Shown piece by piece: positions 48,073 to 49,296 of a stretch of 64,000 bases of DNA. Positions within the stretch are counted from its first letter, which is position 1. Every line of letters begins with the position of its first letter. The translations under genes and the position numbers were made by a program. The notes beneath the pieces were generated by a model. It saw only the letters and a list, made by a program, of their open reading frames with translations, ran no database searches and was not told where the DNA came from. The DNA lies in assembly GCA_902519235.1 (NCBI GenBank), contig CABYJE010000004.1:4331-68330 (forward strand), given 5' to 3'. Origin of the DNA: an uncultured Prochlorococcus sp. GTDB taxonomy: Bacteria; Cyanobacteriota; Cyanobacteriia; PCC-6307; Cyanobiaceae.

Positions 48073-48657
48073 TTAACTTAAACCCATCTCTTTTTTTAAA
48101 AAAGGTGACATAATTTTTGCAGCTTTACCTCTACTACCTAATTTATTTAATTGTGATTGTGATAGCTCACCGTAAACACAGTTAGACTCTTTTACCCAAA
48201 AAATAGATTCGAATTCCCCATTTGGATATTTGGGGTTCTTAAGAATTTCTCCCCAGCATATTCCCGTTGTATCTTTAACTAAGTTTCCTGAGGGATCGCA
48301 CAAAACCATACAACTTATAAATCTTGCACTCCTATAAGGACTATCAGAAAGTTCATTAATTAATTTTTTAATTTTCTCATCATTAGTTTTGGCATATCGA
48401 GCAGAATAAATTCCTGGCCGACCATCTAAAACATCTACTTCAAGCCCCGAGTCATCAGCTAATGCCCAAGTTTTAGTCTCTAAAGCTGCTGCTTTTGCTT
48501 TAAGAAGTGCATTCTCAAAATATGTGTTTCCAGTCTCTTCGACATTTAAGTATTCTGGTTGCTTCTGAACCTTTAAAGACAAAACATCCAGCATCTCTGA
48601 AATTTCAGATACTTTTCTTTGATTGCCACTAGCAATGGTTAGAACTGGAAGGTTCAA
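48073..48657 (-). CDS. rdgB: HAM1/RdgB non-canonical purine NTP pyrophosphatase
   Basis: ASGNQRK, EETGNTYFENALLKA, ADDSGLEV, GRPGIYSARY. Confidence 0.92.
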   Translation of the reverse strand: MNLPVLTIASGNQRKVSEISEMLDVLSLKVQKQPEYLNVEETGNTYFENALLKAKAAALETKTWALADDSGLEVDVLDGRPGIYSARYAKTNDEKIKKLINELSDSPYRSARFISCMVLCDPSGNLVKDTTGICWGEILKNPKYPNGEFESIFWVKESNCVYGELSQSQLNKLGSRGKAAKIMSPFLKKEMGLS

Positions 48658-48696
48658 AATAACAAATAAATTTATTGTGAATATTATCTTACTTCA

Positions 48697-48765
48697 AAGC
48701 TTGATACGGAGACAGGAAAGGTTGAACATTCCACACCTGTGTAGACAGGGCCTGTCTCGTACGGA
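48697..48765. ncRNA. Candidate structured RNA (sRNA or leader element) upstream of the carboxysome operon; strand and ends unknown
   Basis: GC-rich island in an AT-rich spacer; outer stem GAGACAGG (48709-16)/CCTGTCTC (48751-58); inner hairpin CCTGT-GTAG-ACAGG (48736-49). Confidence 0.5.
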
Positions 48766-48966
48766 AATAACATAATGTAAATTTTTTCTTAACACAACAG
48801 TATGTTTTGATGCACTAACTAATTTGCATAAGTATTGACATATCAATAGTACCAAGGGTGATAAGTTTAACTTATGAATGATAGAAAAAACATTAATGGA
48901 GATTTTGTCGAAAACGCTTGACTTATAAGTACTTAATGAAGCATTCTTCGAATTGAACATTCCACA
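48722..48966 (+). repeat. Exact 14-bp direct repeat TTGAACATTCCACA (48722-48735 and 48953-48966)
   Basis: Read directly; each copy is also followed within 12 nt by GTAGACA. Confidence 0.95.
48918..48947 (+). promoter_or_regulatory. Possible proximal promoter of csoS1-rbcLS
   Basis: TTGACT (48918-23), 18 nt spacer, CATTCT (48942-47); would place the start site near 48953. Confidence 0.35.
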
Positions 48967-48984
48967 TTTAGTATTTAGTAGACA

Positions 48985-49296
48985 ATGGCTACAGAAACAA
49001 TGGGTATCGCTCTCGGCATGATCGAGACACGCGGACTTGTACCTGCAATTGAAGCAGCAGACGCAATGACAAAGGCAGCAGAAGTTCGCCTTATTGGTCG
49101 TGAATTCGTTGGTGGCGGTTATGTCACAGTATTAGTTAGAGGCGAAACAGGTGCAGTTAACGCAGCTGTAAGAGCTGGTGCTGATGCTTGTGAAAGAGTT
49201 GGTGACGGTTTAGTTGCAGCTCACATTATTGCTCGTCCTCATAGAGAAGTTGAACCTGCTCTAGGTAACGGTGAATTTCTTGGTCAAAAGGACTAA
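48985..49296 (+). CDS. csoS1: Major carboxysome shell hexamer protein
   Basis: ALGMIETRGLVPAIEAADAMTKAAEV...RGETGAV...HIIARPH BMC domain. Confidence 0.98.
   Translation: MATETMGIALGMIETRGLVPAIEAADAMTKAAEVRLIGREFVGGGYVTVLVRGETGAVNAAVRAGADACERVGDGLVAAHIIARPHREVEPALGNGEFLGQKD

Follow-up and report, generated by a model that had tools for sequence, protein, structure and literature searches.

Background

Several described RNA regulators of cyanobacteria resemble, in part, the element that we report here. Yfr1 and Yfr10 are base-pairing regulators in which a short conserved single-stranded motif is displayed by stems; in Yfr10 the motif lies in a loop on a stem, and Yfr10 pulled down csoS1 mRNA (PMC6778093). 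Yfr28, a nitrogen-responsive picocyanobacterial small RNA with a length of about 70 nt, is encoded next to ftsZ, which is also the first-ranked of its predicted targets (PMC7368042). In Synechocystis, the rbcL antisense RNA RblR regulates the Rubisco message (PMC5306279). Furthermore, in actuatons such as yfr2c-sll1477, a single start site yields a small RNA with a protein gene behind it on the same strand (PMC6596454). As for the carboxysome-Rubisco operon of Prochlorococcus, the main text of a 2026 regulatory map of MED4 infers RbcR only (bioRxiv 10.64898/2026.04.15.718746).

The element in the ham1-csoS1 spacer differs from each of these RNAs. The Yfr1/Yfr10 motif holds UCCU, whereas the core of the element is GGAAUGUUC; furthermore, those RNAs have many targets, whereas one target is evident here. 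Yfr28 lies between ftsQ and ftsZ and occurs in high-light strains only, whereas the element spans Prochlorococcus, Synechococcus and Cyanobium and, unlike Yfr28, is an antisense copy of the leader of its target at a separate locus. In a beta-cyanobacterium, RblR is encoded opposite rbcL, with which it overlaps, and acts positively (PMC5306279), whereas the element overlaps no target. Unlike the protein gene of an actuaton, ham1, which lies downstream of the element, has a second start site of its own.

A conserved structure between ham1 and csoS1

The window analyzed is a stretch of 64,000 nt from an uncultured Prochlorococcus sp. Within it, ham1 (48073-48657, minus strand; RdgB/HAM1 family pyrophosphatase, TIGR00042 above the cut-off) and csoS1 (48985-49296, plus strand; alpha-carboxysome major shell protein, NF053791 above the cut-off) are separated by a spacer of 327 nt. 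csoS1 is the first gene of the csoS1-rbcL-rbcS-csoS2 operon, in which we take the following genes, from their translations, to be rbcL, rbcS and csoS2. Its first ATG (48985, protein start MATETM) is conserved and has a conserved upstream context, and is therefore the likelier start; the MED4 annotation appears to use the second ATG (49000).

The original prediction described a GC-rich island in this spacer that carries an exact copy of part of the csoS1 leader, and its basic observations were reproduced. The GC content of the island is 53%, against 31% for the spacer. The arms of the closing stem (P1), TACGGAGACAGG and CCTGTCTCGTA, lie at 48705-48716 and 48751-48761, and enclose an inner hairpin (P2, CCTGT-GTAG-ACAGG, 48736-48749) and one copy of the 14-mer TTGAACATTCCACA (48722-48735). 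The 14-mer recurs exactly at 48953-48966, 19-32 nt 5' of the csoS1 ATG, and GTAGACA follows both copies (at 48741, 5 nt after the first, and at 48978, 11 nt after the second). When the spacer was shuffled 5000 times with dinucleotides preserved, 4 of the shuffles contained a direct repeat of at least 14 nt, in agreement with the earlier estimate of its chance occurrence. The TATCTT hexamer is found at 48685-48690 as predicted, but its proposed role as a plus-strand promoter is not supported: it overlaps the promoter of ham1 itself. Single-sequence folding was modest (z = -2.2 for the plus strand and -1.4 for the minus strand); thus, the case for the element rests on comparison.

We searched 201 genomes of the family with CsoS1 and examined the upstream DNA in 70 of them. 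A scan of genome contigs for the two-copy motif gave at least 120 further stretches which, among the matches listed, are nearly all from Prochlorococcus, with some from Synechococcus, one from Cyanobium and one unrelated chance match; the conservation of the motif in these stretches is built into the search pattern, and that of the stem and promoter is independent of it. We then searched 80 whole genomes, picked to be complete and widely spread, with a covariance model. It matched 44, including one in which the csoS1 leader alone was hit, and so placed the RNA in 43 of the 80 genomes, which are kin, with one copy in each. Three more genomes have divergent copies that the filtered search overlooked. 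The labels high-light, low-light, marine Synechococcus and Cyanobium-type used below are inferred from GC content and likeness to named records. Where a genome gave a second match, this was a csoS1 leader, the duplicated end of a contig or a weak match in a coding region, and paralogues of the RNA were accordingly rejected. A phage copy was also rejected: the lone match in a viral contig is a chance match inside a ribonucleotide-reductase-like reading frame, and nine weak phage matches had E values of 0.9-3. Decayed remnants, with a stem arm or the promoter retained and the seed gone, were observed in L043 (759-818), L063 and L256, and in L063 the csoS1 leader beside the remnant has drifted too. 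In L248 and L258, P2 contains an insertion of about 25 nt, and P1 and the seed are retained.

The cross-species alignment showed that P1 and the segment at 48722-48735, referred to below as the seed, are conserved across Prochlorococcus and that P1 varies on both sides. On the minus strand, the 5' arm of P1 is 48751-48761 and its 3' arm, from the comparative alignment, is 48705-48716; in 48 Prochlorococcus-type sequences, 99.5% of 384 cells are paired, 4 of the 8 pairs have two-sided changes, and none of 500 shuffles scored as high. The P1 stems of Synechococcus are quite different in sequence and retain the pairing. RNAalifold found no structure in a mixed alignment of 61 sequences because the Synechococcus stems are out of register; with 11 Synechococcus sequences, it found P2 and not P1. 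The core of the seed, GGAAUGUUC (48724-48732), is invariant across the alignments and mostly unpaired.

The variation in P1 also indicates the strand. In the 48 Prochlorococcus-type sequences, every one of the 25 one-sided changes reads as G-U on the minus strand, with a single A-C cell to the contrary, and a strand-neutral register search of 108 unique cores gave 36 G-U versus 9 A-C. Folding energy is undecided on this point (minus strand more stable in 17 of 46). A minus-strand open reading frame of 88 codons (48694-48960) was considered and discarded; its beginning lies upstream of the mapped transcript start, and the tail that runs from the AUG inside the seed is unconserved. This AUG occurs in all three frames (63, 39 and 34 of 136) with reading frames of 5 to more than 60 codons, neither frame nor length being conserved.

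Transcription of the element

On the minus strand, a -10 box (TATGTT, 48769-48774) precedes P1. In relatives it takes the form TAnnnT, and such a box stands 40-48 nt 5' of the seed in 146 of 147 unique spacers, versus 0-74% in control windows. A promoter and terminator scan gave one promoter-like site, which is below chance, and no terminator.

The published start-site tables place a transcript start within 48700-48765, on the minus strand. In MED4, a minus-strand start, 518485(-), appears in three of four tables (S8-S11 of PMC5607370), where it is filed as 102 nt upstream of ham1; the csoS1 start is 518681(+), 44 nt 5' of the annotated ATG, and the ham1 start is 518401(-), 18 nt 5' of the gene (PMC5607370). 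The starts of the small RNA and csoS1 are thus 196 nt apart in these tables, and an equivalent pair, 194 nt apart, is recorded for wild Synechococcus reads on CC9605 (start of the small RNA, gTSS-716220; PMC5069720, Table S2). We transferred the MED4 positions by relative distance, with the annotated csoS1 start presumed to be the second ATG of MATETM (49000). The csoS1 start then falls on 48956, the first A of GAACATTCC, that of ham1 on about 48676 (near 48675-48679), and 518485(-) on 48760-48761, the first base of P1. By these positions, the distance from the csoS1 start to that of the RNA, upstream of it, is about 195 nt, and the RNA is transcribed away from csoS1.

A minus-strand peak of 64 nt (518428-518491), distinct from the ham1 peak (518230-518413), is present in MED4 libraries (PMC6778093). 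The lower end of this peak falls 57 nt away from the start site and coincides with the base of P1. Since the libraries derive from lysate pull-downs, with approximate peak ends, and no U-rich terminator or U-tract follows P1, we regard the base of P1 (about 48703-48704) as no more than the likely 3' end, which would give a small RNA of about 58 nt (48704-48761). In the same libraries, the RNA was unenriched with Yfr2 (0.68), and an antisense peak within the ham1 coding region (517866-518026, plus strand) was enriched 7.6-fold (PMC6778093).

The start or peak of the small RNA is filed under ham1 in the data of PMC5607370, PMC5069720 and PMC6778093. One alternative is therefore that a longer ham1 transcript begins with the structure, an alternative leader of the actuaton kind that would control ham1 in cis or persist as a stable processed by-product; the csoS1 message may then be a ligand, and ham1 the regulated gene. 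ham1 is indeed downstream on the same strand in all 35 genomes examined of the 43 with the RNA, no terminator separates the two, and the ham1 transcript value was +2.96 at 24 h of starvation (PMC5607370). However, ham1 has its own start site with a conserved CACAAT-like box, the RNA peak is separate from the ham1 peak (PMC6778093), and the AUG in the seed lacks a conserved frame or length. Furthermore, L205 has kept the RNA at a distance of about 700 nt from ham1, and ham1 there retains its own box. On balance, a ham1 leader appears improbable.

The original prediction also offered a further model, in which the cso operon has a long alternative leader on the plus strand. The spacer is bridged by some contigs of RNA libraries, though three of the four public RNA runs, whose contig-level data do not resolve the small RNA, have a flat, DNA-like depth. 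In the tables for MED4 and Synechococcus CC9605, the csoS1 start is just 29 nt 5' of the ATG, and in Cyanobium-type genomes two genes separate the element from csoS1; the probability of a long leader is therefore close to nil. In run X10, in which the small RNA is also beyond resolution, the depth is about 10 over the spacer and more than 100000 from 48966, consistent with a short csoS1 leader.

Predicted pairing with the csoS1 leader

In its second copy, the motif forms the beginning of the csoS1 transcript and follows a conserved TTGAC-CAnnnT promoter (48918-48947; -35 box TTGACT, 48918-48923; -10 box CATTCT, 48942-48947). With the start site of csoS1 at about 48956, just 11 of the 14 bases of this copy are transcribed. 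TTGAC is found 37 nt 5' of GAACATTCC in 143 of 147 spacers, and the promoter pattern in 77 of 80 genomes. The csoS1 leader is 29 nt long (48956-48984). Its first part (48956-48969) is complementary to the seed, and its last seven bases, GTAGACA (48978-48984), just 5' of the AUG, are complementary to UGUCUAC in P2 (48741-48747). The predicted duplex has 14 + 2 + 7 pairs and an energy of -26.1 kcal/mol before unfolding costs. The model of the original prediction in which a minus-strand RNA presents UGGAAUGUU to the csoS1 leader gained support from the strand asymmetry, the conserved promoter, the published start sites and the coverage peak, and we consider it likely, from complementarity, that the RNA base-pairs with this leader.

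The distribution of the two sequences among genomes agrees with this pairing in the main. All 43 genomes with the RNA have GAACATTCC at the csoS1 start, versus 18 of the 37 others; of the latter, 17 have a changed leader and 2 leaders were unlocated. Three of the 18 exact-leader genomes outside the 43 carry a divergent RNA. An unfiltered search around ham1 or csoS1 found the RNA absent from all 10 drifted-leader genomes checked of the 17, and since the 17 drifted leaders are of about five motif types, they represent a handful of events. Counting against the pairing, the RNA was undetected in four exact-leader genomes (G095, G174, G191 and G185), and two genomes (G049 and G077) have a one-base seed mismatch. 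Among 998 start regions of its own genome (71% complete), csoS1 is the sole carrier of the seed site; by ensemble binding energy it ranks 10th, not first. The two motif copies show an excess of G-U over the alternative (24 versus 4), a comparison confounded by P2 and AT drift.

The putative second pairing site was above the shuffle mean in 67 of 74 unique pairs, versus 53 of 74 in the wrong-strand control. In a four-by-four comparison of lineages, the own-lineage pairing relative to shuffles was -4.7 kcal/mol in high-light Prochlorococcus (off-diagonal, -0.8 to -2.0) and -4.0 kcal/mol in the Cyanobium type (off-diagonal, +1.2 to -0.7); it was weak in low-light Prochlorococcus (-1.1, with 25 of 42 pairs sampled) and marine Synechococcus (-1.3). 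For example, the Cyanobium-type leader CUCCAGG is opposite CCUGGAG of the RNA, and in L223 the leader CCAUAAGGA is opposite UCCUUCUGG. Thus, as judged by sequence comparison, the predicted second site changes together with the csoS1 start-codon region in two lineages.

In Cyanobium-type genomes, two genes lie between the RNA and csoS1, and the distance is 1.6-2.0 kb, so that the RNA need not adjoin its target. From their translations, the inserted genes are presumably SbtA-like and SbtB-like; the pair was observed in L208, L209, L222, L224, L226 and L265-L274. We ruled out a cis-encoded antisense RNA, since the RNA has no overlap with the target, runs away from csoS1 and is 1.6-2.0 kb distant in these genomes. 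The features by which a trans-acting small RNA is recognized include an own promoter and start site, a conserved structure with covariation, a conserved accessible seed complementary to a non-overlapping target, and the lack of a conserved reading frame. The first, third and fourth were found here, and the second was found for P1, P2 being conserved with little covariation.

The middle part of the covariance model (positions 12-41) matches csoS1 leaders in reverse, which suggests that the RNA may have originated as a copy of the csoS1 leader. A duplication of this kind would also produce the complementarity as a mere by-product, if both copies were sites for one DNA- or RNA-binding protein or if the element were a plus-strand decoy, and GAACATTCC is in fact retained in genomes without the RNA. 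However, the transcribed strand is the minus strand, the second site tracks lineage-specific changes of the leader, and GAACATTCC is unenriched in the own genome (8 occurrences versus 10 for the reversed control). The plus-strand mimic that had been proposed as a second model is also unsupported by the structure, the stem variants being A-C on that strand, and by the start sites: the four MED4 tables list none at the plus-strand candidate (518410-518459). A protein site or decoy is thus a remote prospect. We conclude that the element is genuine, namely a small RNA that is both conserved and transcribed and whose specific predicted target lies in the operon for carbon fixation.

Possible mode of action

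Our preferred explanation, to which we assign a probability of about 0.58, is repression of csoS1 translation through pairing of the RNA with the leader of 29 nt. P1 would close the RNA and display the seed, which would bind the 5' end of the csoS1 message at bases +1 to +9 or more. P2 would then open, and the second stretch would cover the bases just 5' of the AUG. The pyrimidine-rich leader and the start region would be hidden from the ribosome, and csoS1 translation would be lowered. Such a system may function as a threshold device that completes the shut-off of the operon once its transcription drops, for example in nitrogen starvation. After 12 h without nitrogen, reads at the csoS1 start of MED4 fell from 90415 to 1859, and the RNA start appeared, with 216 reads; at 24 h, the RNA start had 462 reads with nitrogen versus 595 without (PMC5607370). 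The tables are noisy, since the primary csoS1 start is not called in those for 24 h. Among the points against repression, the read counts of the RNA start (216-595) are far below that of csoS1 in replete cells (90415), and blocking of the ribosome site may be less general in Prochlorococcus (PMC6778093).

Another possible explanation is that the same RNA pairs with the leader and protects or activates the message, either by blocking 5'-end-dependent decay (RNase J, RNase E) or by opening a fold of the leader. Decay from the 5' end begins at the first transcribed bases, and the invariant seed is opposite exactly these bases. Furthermore, two of the four lineages show only weak pairing at the start-codon site, and the rbcL antisense RNA of Synechocystis is reported to act positively (PMC5306279). 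However, the leader is just 29 nt long, the predicted duplex extends right up to the AUG, and at 12 h the start of the RNA appears as csoS1 falls. Protection is therefore doubtful, and repression seems the likelier effect of the predicted pairing.

The shared upstream region

An inverted repeat, ATAAG-N5-CTTAT (48861-48875), lies between the two promoters, with its center 88 nt 5' of the csoS1 start site. Of 150 unique upstream regions, 145 contain the form AT-N2-G-N5-CTTAT, whose distance to the csoS1 -35 box, on the 5' side, is constant at 47-49 nt, and a GT(G/A)AT half-site follows downstream in 80 of the 150. The RbcR consensus is ATTA(G/A)-N5-(C/T)TAAT, about 90 nt upstream (PMC13249358). 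By this resemblance, the repeat is a candidate RbcR site of alpha-cyanobacteria, bound presumably by a LysR-type, RbcR-like regulator. At 48795-48850 and in orthologous spacers, we also observed a conserved TGT...GTGCTNAC-like block and ACAG-N8/9-ACAGT repeats, which may be sites for another regulator of the RNA promoter. In most lineages, the -10 boxes of csoS1 (48942-48947; CATTCT, CATTGT or CAATGT) and ham1 (near 48675-48690; CACAAT) begin with C.

Relation to known RNAs

No Rfam family (Rfam 15) corresponds to the element; four matches in this search (E = 7.6-9.4) were far below the cut-off, and none lay over it. The original prediction had allowed for overlap with published Yfr RNAs, and no locus listed for Yfr8-Yfr21 in Table 1 of PMC2518516 coincides with the element. 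Membership of the Yfr1/Yfr10 family was rejected on the different motif (GGAAUGUUC versus UCCU) and the lack of an Rfam match. The RNA was not found in the parts covered of PMC2518516, PMC1242208 and PMC7368042 (the latter two with supplements), PMC6596454 and PMC13249358, or in the main text of bioRxiv 10.64898/2026.04.15.718746. In the literature covered we found it neither named nor described; the 2014 MED4/MIT9313 and 2012 marine Synechococcus transcriptome papers are outside this coverage and may name it. The RNA would thus work like the base-pairing Yfr RNAs, yet it is distinct from Yfr1/Yfr10 and from the loci of that table.

Conclusions

Prochlorococcus and marine Synechococcus, which have very few regulatory proteins and a single carboxysome-Rubisco operon, perform a large share of ocean carbon fixation. 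We give about even odds to the wider proposal of an ancient alpha-cyanobacterial small RNA, an antisense copy of the whole csoS1 leader, that would grip the first bases and the start-codon region of the message at once and would serve, beside RbcR at a shared divergent promoter, as a dedicated post-transcriptional switch of carbon fixation in these organisms. It is unusual for a seed to face the very beginning of a message. A single-copy RNA that has a defined start, seed and predicted target, and that is retained in lineages as far apart as high-light Prochlorococcus and Cyanobium, makes post-transcriptional control of the operon directly testable, and is relevant to anyone who expresses alpha-carboxysome operons with the native leader. 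With such a switch, the production of the carboxysome shell would be a control point of ocean carbon fixation.
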